From Myxococcales bacterium (GTDB taxonomy: Bacteria > Myxococcota_A > UBA9042), in NCBI GenBank assembly GCA_009692465.1, contig SHZD01000005.1:689-64688 (forward strand): a stretch of 64,000 bases of DNA. The letters are read 5' to 3'. The notes beneath the pieces are model-generated. The model searched no databases and was not told the origin of the DNA. It saw only the letters and a list, made by a program, of their open reading frames with translations. Of the stretch, positions 1,033 to 14,903 are shown piece by piece. The first letter of the stretch is position 1; every line of letters begins with the position of its first letter. A program made the position numbers and the translations under genes.

Positions 1033-2481
1033 GTGCCCATTGCGCATACGCTGTCGAGTTTTGGTCCCAAGCGCCGACGGCCGCCAGTGTTGTTGGTTGC
1101 CACCTTTGCTAAAAAACCCCAGCCGCCCTACCTTCGGCCCATGCTCGAAGGCCGTGCCGCCATTGTCGCCGCCATTTTCGCCGATTTGGTCGACCGTTTG
1201 GGCCGCAACCGGGTGGTGGTGGGCGACGATGCGCGCCGCGCCTGCGGTTGGCCAAGTGGCGGTCGCGACGGCCCGCTGGCGGTGGCCCTGCCCGCCAACG
1301 CCGAACAAGTCGAAGCGGTGGTCCGCATCGGCAAGACTCGCCACGCCCCGTTGCTCCCGCGGCTGCGCTTGCCGGTGCAGTACCCCGACGAAGTCCGCGA
1401 CGTGCTGATCGTCGATTGCAGCGGTCTGCAGGCGCCGCCGATTATCGATATCGGCCGCCGCACCGCCACGGTCGGCGTCGGCACGCCAGCGGCGTTGGTC
1501 GATCGGCAGGCCCGGCAAGCGCGATTGTGTCTGCGCACCATGCCGGCGTTTGACGACGGCGCGCGCATTGGCGCGCTGGTGGCGTGTGGCGATCCGGGCG
1601 ATCTGGGCAGCGGTGCGGGCAGTTTGTTGCAGGACGTGGTCGGCGCCGAAATCGTGACCGGCGGCGGTCGGTTGGTGCAGTTGGGCGCCGCCGACTGGAT
1701 CGGCCAGCAGCCGTGGCTGCCCGTCGGGCTGGGCAATCCGCTGGGCCAACTGTTGGGCAGCGAGGGCCGGTTGGGGATTGTGTGTTCGGTGACCTTGCGC
1801 CTGCACCCGGCGCCCGATACCGCGTGGCTGACCGCGAGCGGGCCGGCCAGTCGCCCAGCGCTGCTCAGTCTGGCCTCGCTGGCTCGACAGGCACTGAGCG
1901 TCCAAGCGTGCGACACGGTGCTGGGCCGCGAGCGCGATGAACTCCTGCAGGTGGATGTGCGCGTCGCGGCGTGGGATGCAGCTGACTTGCCAGCGGCGCA
2001 AGCGCGCCTGCAGCGCCTGGCTGAACAGCACCAACTGCGCCTGACCACTGCTGTTAGCGAAGGACGGCGCGTCAAGTTGGGTATGCAGCAAGGCCAGTGG
2101 CCTGCAGCGGTCGACCATGGCCCGGTCGTCGACGTGCTGGTGGGCTGGCCGGACGTGCCGACGCTATGGGACGTGACCCAAGCGCTGTACGGCGAAGCGG
2201 GGCGACCACCGCAGCGGATTTGGAGCTTTGGCCACGACGGGGCGCGCCTGCGCTGCGTGGTCACGGTCGATGCTGCAGGGGGCCAACGCATCGACACTCA
2301 CCCGATTGTGGCGCGGGCGGGAGCGCTGTTTGACGCCGGCGCCGTGCCGACTCACGTTGGATCGCTGCTGCGACCTGCTGCGCGGGAACGCATGCCGACA
2401 GCGGCCAAGGTGCTGGGCGCGGCCTTACAACGAGCGTGGGATCCTGAAGGTAATTTGGCGGGGAAAACAGGGATCTGGTAG
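1033..2481 (+). CDS. FAD-binding (PCMH-type) oxidoreductase, GlcE/GlcD-like FAD-linked oxidase
   Basis: N-terminal FAD-binding region (LAVALPANAEQVEAVVRIG) and the C-terminal signature of FAD-linked oxidases (LQRAWDPEGNLAGKTGIW). The true start is probably the internal ATG near 1141 (MLEGRAAIV...). Confidence 0.7.
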   Translation: MPIAHTLSSFGPKRRRPPVLLVATFAKKPQPPYLRPMLEGRAAIVAAIFADLVDRLGRNRVVVGDDARRACGWPSGGRDGPLAVALPANAEQVEAVVRIGKTRHAPLLPRLRLPVQYPDEVRDVLIVDCSGLQAPPIIDIGRRTATVGVGTPAALVDRQARQARLCLRTMPAFDDGARIGALVACGDPGDLGSGAGSLLQDVVGAEIVTGGGRLVQLGAADWIGQQPWLPVGLGNPLGQLLGSEGRLGIVCSVTLRLHPAPDTAWLTASGPASRPALLSLASLARQALSVQACDTVLGRERDELLQVDVRVAAWDAADLPAAQARLQRLAEQHQLRLTTAVSEGRRVKLGMQQGQWPAAVDHGPVVDVLVGWPDVPTLWDVTQALYGEAGRPPQRIWSFGHDGARLRCVVTVDAAGGQRIDTHPIVARAGALFDAGAVPTHVGSLLRPAARERMPTAAKVLGAALQRAWDPEGNLAGKTGIW

Positions 2482-2791: not shown

Positions 2792-5700
2792 CTAGTTCTC
2801 ATCCGCCCGCATACTGGGTCCGCCCAAAATTTTGTCCGGCGGCCCATAGCGAACCATGGCGATCGGACGCACCGCCGGCACTCCCGCGCCGGGCCACAGC
2901 CCCACAGTGGTGCCCGCAGTCAGGTAAATCCCGTCGTCGATTGGAAAATTGAGGGCGAACGCCGCCTCCAGCTTTTCGTCATTGCGATCGCCAAACGGCT
3001 TGAGCAACGGCGTCTCGTGGGTCAGCCCTAAGTCCATCCACACTCCGCTGGGCATCCACGGGTTTTTCCAATTGCCGCGCACCACGGTCGGATTGAGGCT
3101 GCCCGCCACGCTCCAGCGAAAGGCCGGGCCGTCGTCGACCGCAAAAGTAGAGCGAGTGGCCTGCAACCGTGCTGCCGCCGACATGGCAATGCGCCACGGC
3201 CCAAACTGCCCTGAAACCAACGCAGTCGGCGTAAACGTGGGTCCCGGGCGGCCCAGGTATTGCACCGGATCGCCGGCCGGAATGGTCGCCCACAGCATCG
3301 CCGCGTAGCCCCACTCGCCAATGCGGTCGGCACGAAACACATACTTGGCGGCAATGGCAATGTCGGCAATCGCCGGTTCGCTGGGCAGTGGTCCCGAGTC
3401 CGGGCCGAACAGACTGGGCCGCTGACCGACTTGCCACAAGCTGACCGGCACCACCACCCCCAACGTAAAGTGATCGAACACCCGCATCGCCAGTACCGCA
3501 TCGAACTGCATGCGACTTTCGACCAGCGGCCGCAGCACTTTGGACTCGGTGCCGACGACCAGTGGCCGCCACGCAATCTGGCCCTGACCGGCCACTGATA
3601 GCCCGTACAACTCCAGCTCGCGCGCCGACTCCGTTAGCGCGATGCCGGTCCCGTCCAACGTCGGCCGCCCGCTAGTGATATCGGGAGGCTGCAAGGCCAG
3701 CGCCGGAGCCGTTAGCGCCAGCAAGCTCGCAGCCGTCGCCACTACCGCGCGCGGCAACCGCCGTCGAACCACCACCAGCGCCACCAGCACCAGCAAGATC
3801 AACCAGTTGCTGCTGGTGCCGGGACTGGAAGCACTGGCACTGCAAGCAGACAGCGGCGAGGTCCCGCGCAAGTGGGCGCCCTGTTCCAAGGTGTCGAGGT
3901 CGTCGCTGGGATCCAAGGGGTTGGTGTTCAACTCCAGGATTTCAATGCCATCGTTCAGCCCACCGCCATCGGTATCGGGGTTGCGCGGATTGGTGCGATA
4001 CAGCAACACCTCGTCGCCGTCGGGCAACCGGTCGCCGTCACTGTCCGGGTCGCGGTAATCGGGCTTGCCATCGCCATCGGAGTCGAGCGGTTTTTGCAGC
4101 AATCCGGGTACGCTGCCGTTTTCCAACTGATCGGGCACTTGATCGTTGTCACTGTCAGGGTCCAAGGCGTCGATCAGCGTATCGCCATCCGTGTCGAGCG
4201 GCGCCACCGGATTTTGCACCTCGACATTGTCCCAAATGCCATCGGCGTCGGTATCGGCCTTGAGCGGGTCCAAGCCCAACTTGACTTCGATGGCATTGGC
4301 CAACGTATCACCGTCGAAGTCGCCGTCGTTGATGACGTCGTCGGCGGGGTTTTCGGGGTCTGTTTCGCCCTGATCGATGCGCCCATCATGGCTGAAATCC
4401 TCTTTGCCATCGGGCAGTCCGGCATGGTCCGAATCTGGCACTCGCGCCAGGGTGCGCGTCTGCGGATCCTTGTCGGCGATGAACACGTTAGACCCCAACG
4501 CGGTGTATTTCGGCAGCGGCAGCGTCAATTCGGTCAGGCCCAGCTCGGTGCCGTCAAACAAATCGTCACCGTCGGAGTCTTCGTCCAGCGCATCAATTAG
4601 GCCATCCCCGTCGCTATCAAATGCGAAATTGGCCTCGTTGCCGTCGGGCACGCCGTCGTCGTCGCTGTCGCCGTCGCTGATCTTGGTCCCGAGTAACTTT
4701 TCGCCGTCGTCACAAATGCCGTCACCGTCGCTGTCTGGCAGCGCGTTTTTCTTGTCGCCATCGCGCGGGTCGCCCTCATTGGCATCCACGTTGCCGTTGC
4801 GATTGACGTCTTCATAGCCGTCCGCTTGGCCGTCGCCGTCGGAGTCAGGGGCGCACGGAAACGAGCGCGACATCGATTGGGCATCCGGCCGATAAAAGCC
4901 TTTGGCTTCATTAGTTCCGGCTGAACCTGTGCCGGCTTCCACCGGCTTGACGACGCCCATTTCGGTGCCATCCGCCAAGCCGTCGTTGTCGCTGTCCGGG
5001 TCGAGCGCCCCCGGCAAGCCATCGCCATCACTGTCGAAAAGGGCGTTGGGCTCGGCGCCGTCGGCGACGCCATCGTCATCGCTGTCGCGGTCGGTGCTGC
5101 TGGTGCCCGCGCGCAGTTCTTCAAAGTCGCTCAGGCCATCGCCATCGGTGTCGGCAAATTTGGGTGTGCTCAGTGGATCTTCGGGGTCACTTTCGCCACT
5201 GTCGACCTTGCCGTTGCCGTTGAAGTCCTCCAGCCCCTCGCGAAAGCCGTCGCCATCGCTGTCGGCGCGCAGTGGACTGGTGGCGGTGGTCGGATCGGCA
5301 TCGGCGCTGAAGTTGCGACGCAACAGCCAAGTGGCTTTAGCAGTGGCGGCGACATTGCGCTCAGTGCCGTCGGACAGGCCGTCATTGTCGCTGTCGGCGT
5401 CGTTGCCGCACGGGGCGCCATCGCGATCGACGTCGAGACTGAAATTCCACTCGTTGCCATCGAAAATGCCGTCGTCATCACTGTCGGCGTCATAGGGATC
5501 GGTGCCAACCTCGTTCTCTTCGAAGTCGGGCAAACCGTCGCCATCGGCGTCGGCCAATGAACCGGACGAAGTCGACAGTGCTGGATTGGTTTCACCATCG
5601 GCAACCTGCAGTTTACCATCGTGATTCCAATCCTCAGCGCCGTCACGCACCCCATCACTGTCGGTGTCGGCAGCATCGGGGTTGGTGGTGGCACTAGGAT

Positions 5701-8700
5701 CGGCATCGGCCGCAAAGGCACGGCTCAACAAGTCGGTGTCGCTGTCGATCTTATCGGCGGTCTTGCCGGACTCCACGCTGTCCCACACGCCATCATTGTC
5801 GCGATCGGCGTCCAGCGCGCCGATCAGACCGTCGCCATCGCCATCGACCGGCGGTTCCTCGCCGTCGAGCAAGCCGTCATCGTCACTGTCCCGGTCTTTG
5901 GGTCCGGTGCCCAGTTCGACTTCTGGACCGTCCATCATGCCGTCGCCATCGCTGTCTGGCTGGGTGCGGTCGGTGCCGTACTTCTTCTCCGCGGCATCGG
6001 ACAGTTCATCGCCGTCGCTGTCTAAAGCGCGAAAATCGGCCTCGCCATTGCCATCGCTGTCTTTGGGCGCAGTCTTCCAGTCGGCATCGCCGGCTTCACT
6101 GGCGTCGTCCCAGCCGTCATCGTCACTGTCCAAGTCCTTGGCATCTTGCTTGCCGTCGCCGTCCGTGTCGACCGCTTGGCCACCTGGCGCCTCGTGACCA
6201 TCCGCAATGGTGTCGCCGTCACTGTCTGGATTCTTGGGATCCAAACCAATTTTAATTTCAACTGGATTCTTGAGCCCATCGCCGTCCAAATCGCCGCTGG
6301 TGTCATCGGCAGGGTCGAGCGGATTGGTGCCGTCTTGGGTTTCGACGCCATCGCCAGTGCCGCCCTTGTCGGTGTCGGCCTTGTTGGGGTCGGTCTCGCT
6401 GGCGTCGACAGCGCCGTTCTTGTTTTTGTCTTCGCCAGCGTCGAAAAGGCCGTCGCCATCGCTGTCTTTGGAAAGCGGATTGGTTTGGCTGGTGGGATCC
6501 TTGTCGCCGGTTTTGCCCAATTCCAAACCGTCGCCCAAGCCGTCACCGTCGCTGTCGGCCAAGCTGGGGTTGGTCTCGTTGCCGTCCACTTTGCCGTTTT
6601 TGCTGGCATCTTCGACGGCGTCGGTCAAGCCATCGCCATCGGTGTCCGCCGCTTTGGGGTTGGTGGTGGTGCTCGAATCGGCATCGCCCTTCTTGCCCAG
6701 CTCCAGACCGTCAGGCAAGCCGTCGCCATCAGTGTCCACCACCAACGGGTTGGTGCCATGGAAATTGACCTCCAGCCCATCCGAAACGCCATCGCCGTCG
6801 CTATCGGCTGCAGTCGGATCAGTTTCGCCTTTGGTTTTGTCCCACACCCCGTCTTTGTTGGCGTCTTCGCTGCCATCGGCTAGGCCATCGCTGTCGCTGT
6901 CGTCTTTCTTGGGGTTAGACTCGCCATTTTCGACGACGCCGTTCTTGTTCTTGTCCTCGACTCCATCGCTAATTCCATCGGCGTCTGAATCGGCGACATT
7001 GGGATCCGTACCTTGAAAATTAATGAACTTTCCACCGTATTTGGCGTTGACCTCGGTCTTGTCCAGCAACCCGTCACCGTCGCTGTCCTTGGCGCGCGGG
7101 TTGGTGGGGTTGGCGATCGGCAGGCCTTTGTCGTCCGGCTTTTTGACTTGATATTCGCCGATGTTCGTCAGGCCATCGCCGTCGCTATCCAGTCCAGCAT
7201 CGCTGCCGTCCAGGGGCAAAAGGGGCGGGCCTTCGCCAGCCTTGGCGGCATATTTGGATTCCCAGCCATCATCCATGCCGTCGGCATCGGTGTCTTTCTG
7301 GGTCGGATCGGTTTCGCCTAGCGCTGGCTCCCATTTGCCGTTGTGATTGAGGTCTTCCGCACCGTCTGCCAAGCCGTCGCCATCGCTGTCCAAGGTCAAC
7401 GGCGCCGACGTCGTCGCCGGATCGACATCGGCCTGAAACGCAATTTTAGTCGCCTGCGGGTCCTTGGCCGAAATCTGGACTTGGGTTTTGCCCAGTTCAA
7501 CGGCATCGCTGAGGCCATCGCCATCGGTGTCAAATAACAAGGGGCTGGTGCCACCTTCGATGGTAACCCCGGTCCCATCGGTCGCGATCCCGCCCTCGGA
7601 GCCATCCAAGATGCCGTCATCATCGGTGTCGGCATCTTTGGGGTTGGTGACCAACCGGTCTTTGAGCGCAAAAACCTCCTGGCCGTCGCCGATGCCGTCA
7701 CCGTCGCCGTCGCCGTCGTTGGCATTGGTTTTGCTGACCTCGGCTTCGTACTTGGTCGACAAGCCATCGCCGTCCAGATCCTTGCCGGTGTCGTCGGCTG
7801 CCACTTTGGGATCCGTGCCGTCGCTGACTTCGACCGGATCGAGCACGCCGCCGCCATCCGTATCCGCAATTAACGGGTTGATACCCAACTGCACTTCTTT
7901 GCCGTCGCTGAGCGAATCCCAATCGGTGTCCATCACCAATGGATTGGTTTTGTGCAGGTTAACTTCGGGGCCATCGGCCAGCCCATCGCCATCGGTGTCG
8001 GCCTTGAGCGGATCGGTGCCCACCGCTTTGCTCACTTCGCTGCCATCGCTCAGGCCATCGGCATCGGTATCAGCAACGTCGGGTTTGGTCTTGTAGACGG
8101 TCACTTCCTCGCCGTCGGCCAGACCGTCATCATCGGTGTCTTTGTCAAGGCGATCGGTGTTGTACACATTGACTTCTTTCCAGTCCGACAAGTTGTCGCC
8201 GTCGTTGTCCTTCTTGTCGTCGCTGGGATCGGTCGGATTGGTGCCGTCGATCAACACTTCGGCGCCGTCATCGGAAAACCCATTGTCGCTATCGACTTGC
8301 AGCGGATTGCTCTTGGTCACTTGCAATTCGACGTTATCGGGCAGGCCATCGCCATCGGTGTCGACCTTAACCGGCGAGGTCTTGAACTTGGTCACTTCGG
8401 CAAAGTCGGATAAAAAATCACCATCGGTGTCGGTCTTGAGCGGATTGGTGGCGGCGATACCAGCGACCGGTTCCAGCTCTTCTTTGTCCAAAAGTCCGTC
8501 GCTGTCGGTGTCTTTGAGCGTCGGATCGGTGCCAGCGGCCAATTCCTTGTCATTGGCCAGACCGTCGCCGTCCGGATCGCCGGTCGGTCCTTGACCCAAG
8601 TTGCCAAAGTAGCTGACTTCCCAGCCATCATCGAGGCCATCGGCGTCGGCATCTGCGGGCATCGCCCAACTAGTGGTAGCCCCACTTAGCGCCACTACGC

Positions 8701-8827
8701 AGAGCCAAGCCACCGCAACCAAGGCGCGGTGGCGGGAAAGTCGGTCCAAAGTCAGTTTATCAAGATCAGTACGCATGCCTGTATGGTGAACCGCAGCGAC
8801 CGCCGCAGCAAGTGTCAGCCAAGACAT
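2792..8827 (-). CDS. giant secreted calcium-binding repeat protein with about 45 TSP3-like repeats (DxDxDGxxDxxE), an internal MYXO-CTERM-like motif and a roughly 400-aa C-terminal domain
   Basis: A 2011-aa ORF with an N-terminal signal peptide (ALVAVAWLCVVALSGATTSWA) and about 1550 aa of DTDGDGLSDGxE-type aspartate repeats. Near aa 1600 comes LSACSASASSPGTSSNWLILLVLVALVVVRRRLPR (Cys-Ser, hydrophobic stretch, Arg cluster), followed in frame by a second hydrophobic segment and a 400-aa domain of unknown fold. The other five frames give only low-complexity junk ORFs. Confidence 0.85.
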   Translation of the reverse strand: MSWLTLAAAVAAVHHTGMRTDLDKLTLDRLSRHRALVAVAWLCVVALSGATTSWAMPADADADGLDDGWEVSYFGNLGQGPTGDPDGDGLANDKELAAGTDPTLKDTDSDGLLDKEELEPVAGIAATNPLKTDTDGDFLSDFAEVTKFKTSPVKVDTDGDGLPDNVELQVTKSNPLQVDSDNGFSDDGAEVLIDGTNPTDPSDDKKDNDGDNLSDWKEVNVYNTDRLDKDTDDDGLADGEEVTVYKTKPDVADTDADGLSDGSEVSKAVGTDPLKADTDGDGLADGPEVNLHKTNPLVMDTDWDSLSDGKEVQLGINPLIADTDGGGVLDPVEVSDGTDPKVAADDTGKDLDGDGLSTKYEAEVSKTNANDGDGDGDGIGDGQEVFALKDRLVTNPKDADTDDDGILDGSEGGIATDGTGVTIEGGTSPLLFDTDGDGLSDAVELGKTQVQISAKDPQATKIAFQADVDPATTSAPLTLDSDGDGLADGAEDLNHNGKWEPALGETDPTQKDTDADGMDDGWESKYAAKAGEGPPLLPLDGSDAGLDSDGDGLTNIGEYQVKKPDDKGLPIANPTNPRAKDSDGDGLLDKTEVNAKYGGKFINFQGTDPNVADSDADGISDGVEDKNKNGVVENGESNPKKDDSDSDGLADGSEDANKDGVWDKTKGETDPTAADSDGDGVSDGLEVNFHGTNPLVVDTDGDGLPDGLELGKKGDADSSTTTNPKAADTDGDGLTDAVEDASKNGKVDGNETNPSLADSDGDGLGDGLELGKTGDKDPTSQTNPLSKDSDGDGLFDAGEDKNKNGAVDASETDPNKADTDKGGTGDGVETQDGTNPLDPADDTSGDLDGDGLKNPVEIKIGLDPKNPDSDGDTIADGHEAPGGQAVDTDGDGKQDAKDLDSDDDGWDDASEAGDADWKTAPKDSDGNGEADFRALDSDGDELSDAAEKKYGTDRTQPDSDGDGMMDGPEVELGTGPKDRDSDDDGLLDGEEPPVDGDGDGLIGALDADRDNDGVWDSVESGKTADKIDSDTDLLSRAFAADADPSATTNPDAADTDSDGVRDGAEDWNHDGKLQVADGETNPALSTSSGSLADADGDGLPDFEENEVGTDPYDADSDDDGIFDGNEWNFSLDVDRDGAPCGNDADSDNDGLSDGTERNVAATAKATWLLRRNFSADADPTTATSPLRADSDGDGFREGLEDFNGNGKVDSGESDPEDPLSTPKFADTDGDGLSDFEELRAGTSSTDRDSDDDGVADGAEPNALFDSDGDGLPGALDPDSDNDGLADGTEMGVVKPVEAGTGSAGTNEAKGFYRPDAQSMSRSFPCAPDSDGDGQADGYEDVNRNGNVDANEGDPRDGDKKNALPDSDGDGICDDGEKLLGTKISDGDSDDDGVPDGNEANFAFDSDGDGLIDALDEDSDGDDLFDGTELGLTELTLPLPKYTALGSNVFIADKDPQTRTLARVPDSDHAGLPDGKEDFSHDGRIDQGETDPENPADDVINDGDFDGDTLANAIEVKLGLDPLKADTDADGIWDNVEVQNPVAPLDTDGDTLIDALDPDSDNDQVPDQLENGSVPGLLQKPLDSDGDGKPDYRDPDSDGDRLPDGDEVLLYRTNPRNPDTDGGGLNDGIEILELNTNPLDPSDDLDTLEQGAHLRGTSPLSACSASASSPGTSSNWLILLVLVALVVVRRRLPRAVVATAASLLALTAPALALQPPDITSGRPTLDGTGIALTESARELELYGLSVAGQGQIAWRPLVVGTESKVLRPLVESRMQFDAVLAMRVFDHFTLGVVVPVSLWQVGQRPSLFGPDSGPLPSEPAIADIAIAAKYVFRADRIGEWGYAAMLWATIPAGDPVQYLGRPGPTFTPTALVSGQFGPWRIAMSAAARLQATRSTFAVDDGPAFRWSVAGSLNPTVVRGNWKNPWMPSGVWMDLGLTHETPLLKPFGDRNDEKLEAAFALNFPIDDGIYLTAGTTVGLWPGAGVPAVRPIAMVRYGPPDKILGGPSMRADEN

Positions 8828-8884
8828 GTAGTTTATTCAGCCTATTGTGACTCAAACTGAGCAAACCGTGGTTTGTGCGTGCAA

Positions 8885-9080
8885 AGCGACAAGGGGTGGG
8901 CCGCCCAAATTTCCCAACCGAAATTGTGCGCGACCGCCGATTTGGGATGCTAGTGCTCCGTCGCTCGCTGGCGCTCGACAAGGCGCAAGGAGCTGAACGA
9001 TTGAGCCGTACTTGCGTATGGCGATTGAGAGAAGCGCCGCAGCAACGCACAGATGCGCCCAAAGCGGGGGATCGCGGGCC
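8885..9080. repeat. dispersed repeat family 2, copy A (about 190 bp)
   Basis: Shares ccaaattt..accgaaatt...ccgatttgggatgc.agtgc.c.gtcgctcg...cgacaagg.gcaaggagct...cagatgcgcccaaagcgggggatcgcggg with 30897-31085. Confidence 0.7.
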
Positions 9081-9102
9081 GGGGCTGACCTTGCAATGGC
9101 GG

Positions 9103-12100
9103 ATGGCGCGGACCATTCTTGCGCGCCGCGGTCGCCTCAATAGCGAACGCCGTCGAGGCTGCGTGCTGCATCGCGTTATTCCGCTTCTGCTGCTGCTTAC
9201 TGGTGCGACAGGCTTGCTGTACGAAGTCGTGTTGTCGCGGCTTTTGGCGCTGCATTTGGGGTCCTCAGGGTCCTCCCAGGCCATGATGCTGGCTACGTTT
9301 TTGGGCGGTATGGCCGCCGGTGCGTGGCTGGTTGAAAAGCCGTTGCGCAAGCTGGTCATCGCCCTGCCGCGGCCGCTGGTCGGGTATGCAGTGCTCGAAG
9401 GCTTCATTGGCGCTTGGGCGTTGGCGCTGCCAACGGTTTCGTACTATGCCTTTGATCTGTTTACCGAAGTGACCAAAGACCTGCCAACAGGCGGCGTGGC
9501 GGCGACGGCGGCCAAATTGACGCTGGCGGCGGCGCTGGCTCTGCCGCTGACCACGGCGATGGGCGCCACCTTGCCGGTATTGGCGGCGGGCGTGCAGCGC
9601 TTGGCTCCGGCCCACGGCGTGCAATTGGTGTCGCGCTACTACGTGCTCAACGCGCTCGGTGCAGCGATTGGCGCAGCGGTGACCGGTTTTGTCTTGATTG
9701 AAGAACTGGGCATCGTCCAGCCGCTCTATCTAGGCGCAGTGGTCAATGGCGCCGTCGCTGCGGTGGCGTGGCTGGTGTCGCTGCGGGCACCGGCGCCGCA
9801 ATTCCAGTCAGAATCACAGGCCCAGCCAGAATCACAGGCCCAGCCAGAATCACAGGCCCAGCCAGAATCACAGGCCCAGCCAGAATCACAGGCCCAGCCA
9901 GAATCACAGGCCCAGCCAGAATCACAGGCACAACTTGAACCCCAACCGCTGACTGAACCCCTTTCGGTGCCCGAGACCGGCTTGCAACGGGGCCGACCAG
10001 CGGTGACACCAGATCTGCTGGACATCGACGACAACCGCGACCCAAAGCTGGCGTCTACCACCGGTGATACCCCCAAGTCGTTGGTGCTGGCGGCCTTCGC
10101 CACGGGTCTGGTCTCGCTGTGCGCCGAAGTGTTGTGGACGCGAATTGCAGCGCTGGCGCTGGGCTCCTCGGTGTATTCGTTTGCGCTCATGCTCACCGTG
10201 GCCATTGCCGGCATCTCGCTGGGCAGCTGGCTGTCGGCGCGAGCGGTGCGCCATCGCGATCCGCAATGGGTGTTGGCGATTTCGCAAGCGGCGGCCGCGA
10301 CGGCGACAGCGCTGTTGATTTTGCGATTGGACGGCCTGCCGCAGGAGCTTGCGCAAATTCGGCTTGCTATCCATGCCCATCCGGACAACTACCCGGCGTG
10401 GCTGTGGCGTGGCAACCTGTATTTGGCGGCCCACTTGTTGCCCGCAGCAATGGCGCTCGGGGCCTCGTTTCCGGCGCTGTTGGCCAGTGCCCAGGCGCGC
10501 GGCGCGGCGATGGATCGGGCGACAGCGCGCATTTTGGCCGCCAATACGCTAGGCAACCTATGTGGAGCGCTGGGCGGCGGTTTTATCCTGATGCCGGCGT
10601 TGGGCATCGAGGGCTCGCTGTTGGTGACCTTCGTGATTTCACTGGCAGTGGCCCTACTGGTGTTGCCGCGGCCGTGGCAAGGTCACCAATTGCTGCCGGT
10701 GGCAGCGGTGGGGCTGGTGCTGACCCCGTTGCTGCTGGTGGCGTCACCCGATGGTTTTGTGCTGACCCGCGGCCTGTTTCGGTTGCGCGATACCAAGCCC
10801 GAAGACGTCGGCAAGTTCGTGCAGGCCCGTCGCAAGCAAATCCAGGTGCTTTTTCGCCGCGACGGCAAGGACGCCACCATCACCGTCGACAAGTTTCCGA
10901 CTGGCTTTTTGAATTTTCGCACCAACGGCAAGAGCGATGGCGGCACCGGCACCGACGTCATTACCCAAGTCATGCTCGGCCAACTCGGCTTGGTCCACCG
11001 CCCGGCCGCCACCAAGGCGTTCACCATCGGGCTGGGTACCGGCATGACCGCGGCGGCGCTGGCCAGCCACTCCAAAGTCAGCGTACACGTGGTCGAACTG
11101 AGCCCATCCGTTCTCGAAATTGCACCTATTTTCGTCAACTTTAACGGCAAAATCTGGGAGCATCCACGGGTGCACATCACCATCGCCGACGCCCGCGAGG
11201 TGTTGCGCACGCTGCCCGACGGCGAGTTGGACATTGTGGTATCCGAACCGAGCAACCCGTGGGTGGTCGGGGTGGCCGACTTGTTCACCGCTGATAGTTT
11301 TCAGCGCATTTCGCGAAAGCTAAAGCCCAACGGCGTGTTAGTTCAGTGGCTGCAGCACTATGAGCTGTCCGAACACGTCCTGCGCGCGATTTTTTGCACG
11401 CTGCACGGCACTTTTACCCACGTCAAAGTGTACCGCATGTCCTCGGGCGATTTGGCCCTGCTGGCCTCCAATGCCTCACTGGACCTCGATTTTGCGGCGG
11501 CAGCTCAGGCGCTGGCCGATCCGGGGGTGGTGGCCCACCGCACCCTGCTCGCCCGCGCCGATCTGCCGGCCTCGCTGGTGCAAGTGCTGGTAGGTCAACT
11601 GTGCGGCGACAAGACTTTGCGCCGAATGTGTAGGGATTTTGACCAGCCACTGTTGGAATTGCACCCCAAAGTCGAGTACTTAGCCCCGCGCGATTTTTTT
11701 GCACAAACGTCAGCCCGCAACCTGTCGGGCCGCTTGGACACCCGCCGCAGCGACGATCCCTTGGCAGTGGCGGACACCGATCTAGTGCGCTACTTGCACC
11801 AGTGGCCACTGGATGATCAAATCCGAGAACAGCTGCACACCTACCTGATTGAAGTCAATCATCCTTTTGACACAAGTTTGACCTCCGCAACGTCTGCGGA
11901 CGGCAAGTTGCCCAAGACGCTCAGAGCCAAGTTGCAGCAGTTGCCCGAACTGGCCAGTGCGTCGATCGCCCAAAAGGCCATCACTTGCGCGCTGTTACGC
12001 AAAGAGGCCACTTGGTTGATGGATTCACCGTACACCGTTTTGGGCCCAGCCAGCCGCGATCCGCTGGTGATGGCGTGGGTCCAAGCCTGTGAGGCCGCAC

Positions 12101-12105
12101 CATGA
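9103..12105 (+). CDS. fused polytopic membrane domain / spermidine synthase-like (aminopropyltransferase fold) protein, paralog 1
   Basis: N-terminus (LLLLTGATGLLYEVVLSRLLALHLGSS) is homologous to paralog 2. There are multiple TM helices, then a spermidine-synthase-like core (FTIGLGTGMTAAALASH...VVELSPSVLEIA...HPRVHITIADAREVL...DIVVSEPSNPWVVGVADLFTADSF). Start chosen at the ATG at 9103; the track ORF begins at 8875, but that upstream part is occupied by a dispersed repeat. The stop overlaps the next start (ATGA). Confidence 0.8.
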   Translation: MARTILARRGRLNSERRRGCVLHRVIPLLLLLTGATGLLYEVVLSRLLALHLGSSGSSQAMMLATFLGGMAAGAWLVEKPLRKLVIALPRPLVGYAVLEGFIGAWALALPTVSYYAFDLFTEVTKDLPTGGVAATAAKLTLAAALALPLTTAMGATLPVLAAGVQRLAPAHGVQLVSRYYVLNALGAAIGAAVTGFVLIEELGIVQPLYLGAVVNGAVAAVAWLVSLRAPAPQFQSESQAQPESQAQPESQAQPESQAQPESQAQPESQAQPESQAQLEPQPLTEPLSVPETGLQRGRPAVTPDLLDIDDNRDPKLASTTGDTPKSLVLAAFATGLVSLCAEVLWTRIAALALGSSVYSFALMLTVAIAGISLGSWLSARAVRHRDPQWVLAISQAAAATATALLILRLDGLPQELAQIRLAIHAHPDNYPAWLWRGNLYLAAHLLPAAMALGASFPALLASAQARGAAMDRATARILAANTLGNLCGALGGGFILMPALGIEGSLLVTFVISLAVALLVLPRPWQGHQLLPVAAVGLVLTPLLLVASPDGFVLTRGLFRLRDTKPEDVGKFVQARRKQIQVLFRRDGKDATITVDKFPTGFLNFRTNGKSDGGTGTDVITQVMLGQLGLVHRPAATKAFTIGLGTGMTAAALASHSKVSVHVVELSPSVLEIAPIFVNFNGKIWEHPRVHITIADAREVLRTLPDGELDIVVSEPSNPWVVGVADLFTADSFQRISRKLKPNGVLVQWLQHYELSEHVLRAIFCTLHGTFTHVKVYRMSSGDLALLASNASLDLDFAAAAQALADPGVVAHRTLLARADLPASLVQVLVGQLCGDKTLRRMCRDFDQPLLELHPKVEYLAPRDFFAQTSARNLSGRLDTRRSDDPLAVADTDLVRYLHQWPLDDQIREQLHTYLIEVNHPFDTSLTSATSADGKLPKTLRAKLQQLPELASASIAQKAITCALLRKEATWLMDSPYTVLGPASRDPLVMAWVQACEAAP
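9806..9931 (+). repeat. perfect 18-bp in-frame tandem repeat x7 (cagccagaatcacaggcc, encoding QPESQA) inside paralog 1
   Basis: Read directly from the sequence; encodes (ESQAQP)6-7. Paralog 2 has no such linker. Confidence 0.9.
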
Positions 12106-14903
12106 CGACCGCGCTCGCCAGCAGTCCCGTGGATCGGACGCTAAACCGTTTGATTCCAGCGTTGTTGCTGGCCACGGGCGCCACCGGTCTGGTCTATGAA
12201 GTCGCGCTGAGCCGCATGCTCAGCCTGTATCTAGGTTCGTCGGGCGCATCGCAGGCGATCACTTTGGCGACTTTTCTGGGCGGGATGGCGCTGGGCGCAG
12301 CGCTGGCCGGTCGGGCCCAGCGCGGGGTGCTGTCGCGATTGGGGCGGCCGTTGGTGGCCTACGCCATTCTCGAAGCGTTCATCGGCGGGTGGGCGCTGCT
12401 GTTGCCGACATTGACCGACGCGACGATGGGCACGCTACAGGTGTGGCTGACGGGCCGTGACGCCGGCGGCGCGGTGGCGCTGACCGTCAAGCTCGCCGCG
12501 TGTGCGGTGGTGGTGCTGCCGCTGACCGCCGCGATGGGGGCAACGCTGCCGGTGTTGTCGGCCAGCATTGACCGCTTGCAACCGGAGCGCGGCGTTCAAT
12601 TGGTGTCGCGGTACTACTGGCTCAACGCAGCGGGGGCGGCGACCGGCGCAGCGTTGGCTGGGTTTGTGCTGATCGAAGCGTGGGGCTTGGGCGAATCGCT
12701 GGCGGCAGGCGCGCTGGTCAATTTCGCGGTGGCCGCCATCGGTGGGTCGATCGCCAGCCGCCACCCGGCGCCGCCGCGAGTCGATAGCCCTGCCTCTAGC
12801 GAACACGGTTACGACGGCGCGCCGATCGCCAAGCTGGTTGCCGCGGCATTCTTGACGGGCCTAGTGGCTTTGCTGTGCGAGGTGCTGTGGACCCGTACGG
12901 CCGCCTTGTGGTTGGGCGCTTCGGTGCACGCTTTCGCCTTGATGTTGACAGTGACTATCGCCGGGATCGCGCTGGGCAGTGCGTTGGCGGCGCGGGCGAT
13001 CGGTAAAGGTGCGCGGCCAGAAGTGGTGCTGGTGGCCACCCAAGCCGGAGCGGGTCTGTGCGCGGTGGCGTTGGCGGCCCGCTTGGATGCGGCGGCCATG
13101 GACCTGTTGCTCGCCCGCCTAAAGCTAGTGCACGATCCAGATAACTATGGTTTGTGGCTGGTGGTTTCCTCGACTCTGGTGGCGCTGCACCTGCTGCCAG
13201 CGGGGCTGTGTCTGGGCGCAGCCTTTCCGGCGTTGTTGGCAGCGGCGCGGCGTCAGGGGGCGCGCATCGATCGGGCGACCGCGCACCTGCTGTCCGCTAA
13301 CACGCTGGGCAATCTATTGGGTGCCCTGGCCGGCGGCTTTGTGGTCATGCCGACTTTGGGCTTGGACGGAGCCTATTTGGCGGCAGGCGCCGCGTCGTTT
13401 GGGGTCGCAGCCTTGGTGGCCCCCAAACCGTGGACGCGGATGGGCACCGCCCCGATTGCGCTACTGGCGGCGTTGGCCGTGCTGATCGCGCTGCAGTTTC
13501 CCCATCGCGATCAAGCGCTGACCAAAGGCCTGTTTCGCTTGCATGCCCCGCCTGGCCGCATCGATCCGGGAGCGCGACTGTGGGCCACGGTGGCCGGCGA
13601 AGTGGTGTTGCGGCGCGACGGCAAAGACGTTACGGTGACCGTGGAGCGCTTCGCCGGCAATCACTTGATTTACGCCACCAACGGCAAACCAGAAGGCGGC
13701 AGCGGCGACGTTCCGACCCAATTGCTGCTCGGCGTCGATGGTTATTTGGCCGTACCACATGCCAAAGACGTGCTGGTCATCGGCTTGGGCACCGGCCAGA
13801 GCGCGGCGGCGGTGGCGGCCAAAGCGGACGTGCAGGTGCACGTGGTGGAATTATCGGCGCCGGTGCTCGATGCCGCGGCCTTGTTCAAGGATCTCAACGA
13901 CGACGTGCTGCACAACCCGCGGGTGCGGGTGACGATCGCCGACGCCCGCGAGATCTTGCGCTCGTTGCCGCCCGCGAGCTTGGACTTGGTGGTCAGCGAG
14001 CCGAGCAATCCATGGGTGGCCGGTGTCGCCGACCTGTTCACGGTGGAGGCTTTTGAGCGCGTGGCGTCGCGACTGCGGCCCAAAGGCGCGCTAGTCCAGT
14101 GGATTCAACGCTATGAAATGAGCGACCCCACTTTTCGCTCGATCTTGTGCAGCCTGCACAGCGTGATGCCGCACGTCGCGCTGTTTCGGACCATGCCCGG
14201 CGATTTGATAGTGATTGCCAGCAAGACGCCACTCGATTCGCCGCTGGCTGCCGCCCAGGCCACCTTTGCGGCGCCGGACCTTGCGGGCTATTTGAGCCGA
14301 CGCAAAGGCGATTATGTGCCGCAGGACTTTGCGCAGTTGCTAGTCAACCAGCTGTGCGGCTCGGCTACGGTGGCGCAATTTTGCCGTGGTTTTGGCCAGC
14401 CATTTTCCGAAAAGCGACCGCAGTTGGAGTTTTCGGCCCCGCGCGACCTCTTTGCCCATGCCGACGCCACCGCGACGCAGCGCTTGTTGGATACGCGCAC
14501 CACCAAGCACGGCGATACGTGGCTGGCGCAGTGGCTGCTCGATCACCCGCTCGATGCGGCCGGCAAGCGCGCACTGCAACAGTATTTGGAGCGCAGCACC
14601 CACAGTGGCGACGCGGCGTTGCAGTTGGCGCTGGCACAGAACTTGCCAGCGCCGGTCAGCGCGACGGTGGCGGCCTTGCCGGCGGTGCCGTTGGCTGATG
14701 CCAAAGAGGCGGCGCCGTGGTGCGCATGGCTGCTGGCCGGGGTGCCCCAGCTGATCGAGGCCCAGATCACCATTGTCGGCCCGGTGTTGCCCGATGCCAA
14801 AGCCCAGGCGTGGATCGACCGGTGCACCCTCCCCGATATCGCCAACGCCCACCGCGGCGCCGGTTTTGCCCTGCCCGGCCGCGCCTTCGTTCCAGCGCGA
14901 TGA
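12102..14903 (+). CDS. fused polytopic membrane domain / spermidine synthase-like protein, paralog 2
   Basis: Same architecture as paralog 1 (LLLATGATGLVYEVALSRMLSLYLGSS ... VLVIGLGTGQSAAAVAAKADVQVHVVELSAPVLDAA ... NPRVRVTIADAREILRSL ... DLVVSEPSNPWVAGVADLFTVEAF). ATGA start/stop overlaps at both ends. Confidence 0.85.
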   Translation: MTTALASSPVDRTLNRLIPALLLATGATGLVYEVALSRMLSLYLGSSGASQAITLATFLGGMALGAALAGRAQRGVLSRLGRPLVAYAILEAFIGGWALLLPTLTDATMGTLQVWLTGRDAGGAVALTVKLAACAVVVLPLTAAMGATLPVLSASIDRLQPERGVQLVSRYYWLNAAGAATGAALAGFVLIEAWGLGESLAAGALVNFAVAAIGGSIASRHPAPPRVDSPASSEHGYDGAPIAKLVAAAFLTGLVALLCEVLWTRTAALWLGASVHAFALMLTVTIAGIALGSALAARAIGKGARPEVVLVATQAGAGLCAVALAARLDAAAMDLLLARLKLVHDPDNYGLWLVVSSTLVALHLLPAGLCLGAAFPALLAAARRQGARIDRATAHLLSANTLGNLLGALAGGFVVMPTLGLDGAYLAAGAASFGVAALVAPKPWTRMGTAPIALLAALAVLIALQFPHRDQALTKGLFRLHAPPGRIDPGARLWATVAGEVVLRRDGKDVTVTVERFAGNHLIYATNGKPEGGSGDVPTQLLLGVDGYLAVPHAKDVLVIGLGTGQSAAAVAAKADVQVHVVELSAPVLDAAALFKDLNDDVLHNPRVRVTIADAREILRSLPPASLDLVVSEPSNPWVAGVADLFTVEAFERVASRLRPKGALVQWIQRYEMSDPTFRSILCSLHSVMPHVALFRTMPGDLIVIASKTPLDSPLAAAQATFAAPDLAGYLSRRKGDYVPQDFAQLLVNQLCGSATVAQFCRGFGQPFSEKRPQLEFSAPRDLFAHADATATQRLLDTRTTKHGDTWLAQWLLDHPLDAAGKRALQQYLERSTHSGDAALQLALAQNLPAPVSATVAALPAVPLADAKEAAPWCAWLLAGVPQLIEAQITIVGPVLPDAKAQAWIDRCTLPDIANAHRGAGFALPGRAFVPAR

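Follow-up and report, generated by a model that had tools for sequence, protein, structure and literature searches.

The DNA analyzed here (64,000 nucleotides of contig SHZD01000005.1, from Myxococcales bacterium assembly GCA_009692465.1; hereafter, the window) carries a monocistronic gene for a 2,011-residue protein, with a convergent neighbor on its 3' side and a divergent one on its 5' side. A signal peptide region, a giant array of thrombospondin type 3 (TSP3) repeats, a MYXO-CTERM-like sorting signal, a second hydrophobic segment, and a β-barrel domain follow one another in this single open reading frame (ORF), as listed in Table 1. All the features that a first-pass annotation had described in this ORF are present, and the two strings that it quoted from the junction (LSACSASASSPGTSSNWLILLVLVALVVVRRRLPR and AVVATAASLLALTAPALA) are exact. 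Yet the motif, which it had placed at residues 1590 to 1630 and in the middle of the ORF, lies at residues 1659 to 1693, at 82% of the length of the protein, and the domain past the Ala-x-Ala (AxA) site spans 300 residues instead of 400. An exact-sequence look-up of the 2,011-residue protein returned no match.

Table 1. Features of the 2,011-residue protein and its gene (nucleotide positions are those of the window)
Feature	Residues	Position	Strand	Sequence or basis
Whole ORF	2011 aa + stop	2792..8827	-	ATG to stop
N-terminal Sec signal peptide region (predicted)	1-55	8663..8827	-	...RALVAVAWLCVVALSGATTSWA / MPADADADG
Passenger, acidic bacterial TSP3 Ca-binding repeats	56-1658	3854..8662	-	Pfam PF18884
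Internal MYXO-CTERM-like sorting signal	1659-1693	3749..3853	-	LSACSASASSPGTSSNWLILLVLVALVVVRRRLPR; TIGR03901 and invariant Cys/Arg
Cysteine of the sorting signal	Cys1662	3842-3844	-	
First transmembrane segment (TM1)	1675-1687	3767-3805	-	WLILLVLVALVVV
Arg cluster	1688-1693	3749-3766	-	RRRLPR
Internal signal-peptide-like segment (TM2; h- and c-regions)	1694-1711	3695..3748	-	AVVATAASLLALTAPALA
C-terminal TraB-like 12-stranded outer membrane β-barrel (predicted)	1712-2011	2795..3694	-	300 aa, ~32 kDa

The N-terminal region closes with ALSGATTSWA, after which MPADADADG follows. A 15-residue hydropathy window exceeds 2.0 at residue 34, and orthologs have an equivalent AxA site immediately ahead of a conserved AD.D.DGL.D.WE stretch; cleavage of a signal peptide would be expected at this position. 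The true start may be Met18 (nucleotide 8776) rather than the annotated ATG. In the passenger that follows, 21% of the residues are Asp. Pfam TSP3_bac (PF18884) matched 20 stretches of the protein, while the strict motif DxDxD[GN]xx[DNE] occurs 42 times and a relaxed version 54 times between residues 59 and 1582, so that an earlier count of about 45 repeats was fair. The predicted mature passenger, residues 56 to 1662, would have a mass of ~166 kDa and an isoelectric point (pI) of 4.05.

The fused gene is real and conserved in Myxococcota and is not an assembly error. We scanned one genome per species (GTDB species representatives) with an alignment of six barrel sequences and obtained 17 loci, 16 of which have the TSP3 repeats, the junction, and the barrel in one frame that is uninterrupted and free of N runs. 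Twelve of these are complete ORFs of 2,005 to 2,113 residues (L006, L007, L009 to L015, L017, L019, and L022), and the other four are truncated by the end of their contig; the identity of their barrels to that of the window ranges from 44 to 84%. The remaining locus, L020, holds a stand-alone paralog and shares its metagenome-assembled genome (MAG) with the fused L019. Nearly all of the source MAGs are freshwater or groundwater Myxococcota or Myxococcales; three bear older labels (Deltaproteobacteria or Proteobacteria), and another is listed as Enterobacteriaceae. The latter, L013 (CAYHHL010000008.1, “uncultured Enterobacteriaceae bacterium”), has a full-length ortholog whose junction is almost identical to that of the metagenome protein P0002, and its label is probably wrong. 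A divergent spermidine-synthase-like gene is kept in L006, L007, and L017, and an FAD-dependent neighbor gene is kept in L012, L013, L014, and L022; this shared synteny supports orthology. None of the conserved neighbors is a secretion or sorting gene.

Metagenome proteins P0002, P0003, and P0004 have the same fused layout, and in P0002, which the first homology search found along with P0001, the junction is likewise in frame, on a contig free of gaps. A second search, using a 12-sequence barrel alignment, returned P0001 alone. This 300-residue gene call is the tail of a 2,124-codon ORF, which the gene caller split because a 100-N scaffold gap falls within an 18-nucleotide (LLLAGE)n repeat at the junction. 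The same tandem repeat, in the internal signal-peptide region of one orthologous species, is found at ~9790-10010 of L001 to L003 and at the junction of L009; it broke three independent metagenome assemblies, leaving 100-N gaps with different copy numbers on each side. L009 bridges this gap in frame, and junction lengths among orthologs vary by whole codons only. Orthologs are uniformly a single protein, which is one half of a pair of observations that the first-pass annotation had set against its own interpretation; the other half, the lack of a MYXO-CTERM profile match, did not occur (see below).

The domain downstream of the junction has clear homologs (E value of 6e-103). AlphaFold2, given a 12-sequence alignment, predicts 12 long strands with a mean local confidence (pLDDT) of 82.3 and a template modeling score (pTM) of 0.82, so the structure check proposed earlier for this part of the protein returned a barrel. 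The TraB profile NF033763 matches the window barrel over profile positions 59 to 185 (E value of 2.9e-4) and is matched by all 12 aligned relatives (best, 1.4e-24), yet the score of the window barrel, 19 bits, is far from the cutoff of 700. By these profile matches, the domain is a distant paralog of the TraB barrel and not TraB. For PF13557 (Phenol_MetA_deg), the window domain stays below threshold (12.9 bits; gathering score, 22), whereas relatives exceed it; a profile search of PDB sequences gave chance matches only. In the AlphaFold2 model, ~30 non-barrel residues lie between TM2 and the first strand. The ORF stops ~18 residues past the last strand, and no OmpA domain was matched by Pfam in the window protein. 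The close orthologs (L006 to L019, L021, and L022) likewise finish at the barrel, whereas more distant fused relatives retain OmpA.

How widespread is this layout among related barrels? An exhaustive HMMER search with the barrel (E < 1e-3) gave 140 representative proteins. Most of them are 500 to 650 residues long and have the TraB layout, with a signal peptide, the barrel, a TSP3 linker, and OmpA. In about 32, the barrel is internal: 28 full or partial proteins, three N-terminally truncated fragments, and P0001. Each of these has the series Cys...helix...RRR(R)...helix...AxA directly upstream of the barrel, while the fused passengers are mutually unrelated and include TSP3 arrays, DUF11 domains, VWA domains, and Cys-rich repeats. 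When mapped on a rough neighbor-joining tree of the barrels, fusion turns up in scattered positions and requires at least 17 state changes; with low identities and some “unfused” calls due to gene-caller artifacts, this number is a crude estimate. These results suggest that, within the TraB-like barrel family, the layout is both frequent and polyphyletic. No upstream MYXO-CTERM gene lies beside the stand-alone barrels P0051, P0015, and P0005; therefore, the precedent for a two-gene version rests on the published TraA/TraB pair. At the P0015 locus (L024, 1534-3462), the gene for a stand-alone TraB-like barrel with OmpA overlaps by 4 nucleotides a downstream gene (3459-6462+) for a giant 4,116-residue protein with a signal peptide; this barrel-first order is the reverse of traA-traB.

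The sorting region of the window protein reads RGTSPLSAC(1662)SASASSPGTSSN-WLILLVLVALVVV-RRRLPR. After the Arg cluster 318 residues remain, so the motif is not at the extreme C terminus; the chance of 349 stop-free codons past the Cys at this GC content is ~1.5e-4. The resemblance to MYXO-CTERM noted at first sight was borne out narrowly, for when the junction is scanned by itself TIGR03901 gives 21.4 bits on a 72-residue segment (residues 1640 to 1711) and 20.1 bits on a 105-residue segment (cutoff, 20), whereas it is not listed in the full-length scan. Across 29 fused-representative junctions (the window and 28 representatives), TIGR03901 matches 17 and TIGR03382 matches 8 at an E value of ≤0.01, and neither the Cys nor two of the Arg residues vary in any of the 29 or in any of the 17 orthologs. 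The order of elements is likewise the same in 17 of 17 orthologs: RG[TS][ST]PL[STG](A)C, a short spacer, a hydrophobic helix of ~12 to 17 residues, three to five Arg or Lys residues, a second hydrophobic stretch, and [A/S/G/V]-x-Ala.

Several features of this second stretch are those of a signal peptide. The -1 position is Ala and the -3 position is A, S, G, or V in all 17 orthologs, Pro occurs upstream of the site (about -3 to -7) in 16 of them, and the site, followed by Leu, Ala, or Glu, lies three to five residues ahead of a conserved xD[VIT]T[GS] motif. While the flanks of the junction are strongly conserved, both helices vary freely in sequence and length, as expected for targeting peptides or linkers that are discarded. 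There is also a stand-alone form of the same barrel, led by an N-terminal signal peptide (P0005/L020): the P0005 gene begins with an ATG of its own, is preceded by an in-frame stop, and encodes the signal peptide MFLSVPTEIWRARSTAALLASSLMVAAVAPASA/AEIGQPDVTG, which aligns with RRRRLLALAVVSVVSGLGASAAVAAA/EVGQPDVTG of its fused paralog. Most other stand-alone relatives also have canonical signal peptides with an AxA-type end such as AQA. This evidence points to the second helix as a conserved signal-peptidase-type signal sharing the Arg cluster with the sorting tail, with a predicted signal peptidase I site at Ala1711/Leu1712 and the Arg cluster as its n-region. The suggestion that two ancestral genes, an adhesin and a barrel-like partner, had fused thus gains support from the barrel's homology to TraB, from the MYXO-CTERM tail and signal peptide that meet at the junction, and from the stand-alone form; the earlier interpretation as a whole is partly supported.

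We consider it fairly probable (about 65%) that this protein is a two-in-one precursor of a TraA/TraB-like surface pair, separated by a myxosortase and signal peptidase I. For TraA and MXAN_4924, the MYXO-CTERM route comprises Sec export, proposed lipidation of the Cys, cleavage by MrtX, and export by the type II secretion system (T2SS); lipidation of the TraA Cys is itself still a proposal (PMC11980579). In the precursor, the N-terminal signal peptide would let Sec carry the ~1,600-residue acidic passenger over the inner membrane until TM1, the MYXO-CTERM helix, halts transfer and leaves the Arg cluster in the cytoplasm. TM2 would then restart translocation as a signal peptide, with the Arg cluster as its positive n-region, and the barrel would enter the periplasm. 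With TM1 as a stop and TM2 as a restart, both large domains would be periplasmic and joined by a hairpin; an outer membrane barrel held by such a tether cannot get to its membrane, and the conserved AxA site offers a release point. Signal peptidase I would cleave after Ala1711 to free the 300-residue domain, which the BAM machinery would put into the outer membrane as a 12-stranded barrel, while the MYXO-CTERM pathway would free and lipid-anchor the passenger. The ~49-residue hairpin would be thrown away; we find it more likely that it exists transiently, in the precursor, than that it serves as a lasting anchor. Processing is predicted to yield a passenger of 166 kDa (pI 4.05), a barrel of 32 kDa, and a hairpin remnant of 4.9 kDa. 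One monocistronic gene would thereby yield a lipid-anchored Ca-binding adhesin and its barrel partner at a ratio of 1:1. TraA and TraB form 1:1 complexes (PMC12045341), a stoichiometry that a single precursor would fix.

Several observations weigh against this precursor model. Cleavage is a prediction for the window protein and a proposal for MXAN_5598, and the window clade has no OmpA domain, a part that is essential to TraB in outer membrane exchange, which leaves the analogy with TraAB incomplete. The MYXO-CTERM score is borderline (20.1 to 21.4 bits; cutoff, 20), and in place of the generic GCGC the motif offers only one Cys (SAC or LSC). TM2 is Ala-rich and moderately hydrophobic, its 15-residue Kyte-Doolittle mean never reaching 2.0. 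An AlphaFold2 model of the junction and barrel from five sequences is of low confidence (pLDDT of 58), showing the two helices weakly and giving no docking information. Finally, a crude pattern search found no CPBP-type or myxosortase ORF and no other MYXO-CTERM tail in the 64-kb window, a result that holds for the window and is no evidence of absence from the genome.

One alternative keeps the processing of the precursor and differs solely in the role of the barrel, which, after separation, would be a dedicated translocator or anchor of the unfolded, Ca-free TSP3 chain, giving surface display independent of the T2SS. We regard this as unlikely. The barrel can be likened to those of FapF and of autotransporters, but COG4313, KdgM, and NanC channels match the fold about as well as translocators do, so the fold is no proof of translocation, and Pfam finds no autotransporter domain in the window protein. 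Moreover, Myxococcus xanthus MYXO-CTERM proteins go by the T2SS (PMC11980579), and TraA and TraB each get to the outer membrane independently of the other (PMC12045341).

Far less room is left for the view that the hairpin is a permanent, uncleaved inner membrane anchor made of TM1 and TM2, with the TSP3 region and the C-terminal domain both in the periplasm. Adjacent hydrophobic helices parted by an Arg loop are a normal membrane hairpin, and the cleavages that this view dispenses with are ones that we infer. Yet the C-terminal domain is confidently modeled as a 12-stranded outer membrane barrel, and its stand-alone homologs carry cleavable signal peptides; in addition, small residues at -3 and -1 are kept in 17 of 17 orthologs while the rest of TM2 drifts. 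The ~30 residues between TM2 and the first strand would also probably be too few to span the distance to the outer membrane.

Equally improbable, in our estimation, is internal initiation, in which the barrel would be translated separately from an in-frame GTG or ATG within TM1 or the Arg cluster, making this ORF functionally two overlapping genes. A GTG at residues 1685/1686 of the window protein, just ahead of the Arg cluster, would yield M-VRRRLPR-AVVATAAS...ALA, a product with a textbook signal peptide, and traA and traB are translationally coupled (PMC3325183). However, no start codon is positionally conserved, the junctions of L011 and L018 are free of any ATG, GTG, or TTG, and, one weak case excepted, the junctions contain no Shine-Dalgarno-like sequence, from which we conclude that the barrel is synthesized within the long chain. 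With no stop codon in the way, the full-length chain is made whatever happens internally. As for a stop codon or frameshift lost between two genes by sequencing or assembly error, MAG-type data, a repeat-rich gene, and the scaffold gap exactly at the junction of the related assembly L001 to L003 would allow for it, but we give it next to no credence, as the frame is open and free of Ns in 16 independent species-level MAG loci, L009 fills that gap in frame, junctions differ by whole codons, and barrel identities of 44 to 84% make the same error in every assembly implausible.

The surroundings of the gene offer some further observations. Directly 3' of its stop codon, between the convergent genes (2513-2783), lies a direct tandem repeat of a 135-bp unit in 2.0 copies with one mismatch; it has no Rfam match and no further copies in the 64-kb window. 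A scan for promoters and terminators gave nothing beyond shuffled expectation. On the other side, divergent from the adhesin gene, two tandem paralogs (8875-12105 and 12102-14903, plus strand) encode large polytopic membrane proteins, each with a fused domain of the spermidine-synthase or methyltransferase type; the stop of one gene overlaps the start of the next, an (ESQAQP)n low-complexity run occurs in the first, and the arrangement is kept in L006, L007, and L017. Two minus-strand ORFs of 377 and 389 residues (985-2118 and 1128-2297) overlap the FAD_binding_4 gene (1033-2481, plus strand) and look like high-GC shadow ORFs rather than genes.

If the processing model is true, the protein would be a bacterial case of a chain that enters the membrane as a precursor and is cut by two distinct membrane proteases to give an adhesin and its barrel partner; it would also be a natural test of whether C-terminal sorting signals work internally. 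By our survey, the layout appears to be common (about a quarter of the barrel-family representatives), with apparently many origins and unrelated passengers, which argues for a general coupling between MYXO-CTERM proteins and TraB-like barrels; such a coupling would extend beyond the TraAB kin-recognition system. The barrel-only clade, kept in many lake and groundwater Myxococcota, provides a minimal version without OmpA in which to ask about the role of the barrel. For annotation, searches for C-terminal tags miss fused proteins, and gene callers sometimes split them, as in P0001. A more speculative reading, to which we assign a low probability, is that of a widespread, self-contained surface-display module in Myxococcota, one gene encoding a cargo along with its own 12-stranded outer membrane partner, by which the lipidated cargo would be exported or docked. 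A sortase-like intramembrane protease and signal peptidase I would free the two from their common precursor. This would be a new route of secretion and anchoring, akin to type V secretion and to the T2SS-dependent MYXO-CTERM pathway but separate from both, and the Arg cluster would have a dual role as the positive-inside determinant of the sorting tail and the n-region of the internal signal peptide.

Among known systems, the likeness to type Va autotransporters is one of fold class only. In these proteins a pore-spanning α-helix joins the two parts, whereas in the window protein the link is an inner membrane TM-RRR-TM hairpin with sorting and cleavage signals, and the parts are expected to travel separately. 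COG4313/PF13557 channels such as Pput2725 (PDB 4rl8), and FapF (PDB 5o65), share 12 to 13% identity with the window domain and are stand-alone channels, with no fused adhesin. The passenger has a counterpart in the TSP3 repeat arrays of CglD, MtsD, and MtsC of Myxococcus: NF033765 (CglD) scores 562 bits (cutoff, 400) and MtsD scores 133 bits, while the MYXO-CTERM protein MtsC is weakly matched near the junction. We rejected CglD orthology, as that score is built from 13 repeated TSP3 stretches, with no VWA match and no N-terminal lipobox. The logic of the junction recalls viral glycoprotein polyproteins. In bunyavirus Gn/Gc and flavivirus prM/E, an internal signal sequence comes directly after a stop-transfer helix and is cleaved by the signal peptidase of the host, so that one chain yields two membrane or secreted products. 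There is no homology, however, and the viral cases are eukaryotic endoplasmic reticulum systems, whereas a sortase-like intramembrane protease is the proposed agent of the first cut in the window protein. When we searched the literature for polyproteins of this kind in bacteria, with internal signal peptides, only papers on viruses and on type IX secretion came up.

The TraA/TraB pair comes closer, for it too combines a MYXO-CTERM surface protein with a signal-peptide-bearing outer membrane barrel partner, and the barrels are homologous. The two are separate genes rather than one ORF, but with the 4-base overlap of traA and traB (PMC3325183), a small indel could be enough to join them. The passengers differ: that of TraA has a PA14-like variable domain and Cys-rich repeats, in contrast to the TSP3 array of the window protein. 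TraB also has a TSP3 linker and an OmpA domain, the latter required for exchange, whereas the window protein has neither after its barrel.

The closest match is MXAN_5598. Internal MYXO-CTERM motifs in ORFs are described as rare (Sah et al., mBio 2025, PMC11980579) and go unmentioned in the myxosortase preprint of Haft; MXAN_5598 combines an adhesin, an internal MYXO-CTERM motif, an outer membrane barrel, and OmpA, and a gene fusion resembling TraA plus TraB, with an N-terminal part that is processed and surface anchored, has been proposed for it (PMC11980579). Judged by this published description, it shares with the window protein a large adhesin-like N-terminal region, the internal MYXO-CTERM motif, and the barrel in one ORF. 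What the first-pass annotation had offered as a possible new architecture with a helical-hairpin anchor is thus of a kind already known, as a remark on one protein, and the window clade is a variant without the OmpA domain. Namely, MXAN_5598 ends in a cell-wall-binding OmpA domain, whereas the window protein finishes at the barrel; MXAN_5598 adjoins ftsA and ftsZ, whereas the window gene adjoins genes for spermidine-synthase-like and FAD enzymes. The second hydrophobic segment is not discussed as a signal peptidase I substrate in that paper (PMC11980579). To this precedent our analysis adds a conserved barrel-only, giant-TSP3 clade in freshwater Myxococcota, evidence for the second helix as a conserved signal-peptidase-type signal, evidence against internal initiation, and a survey of how frequent the layout is.

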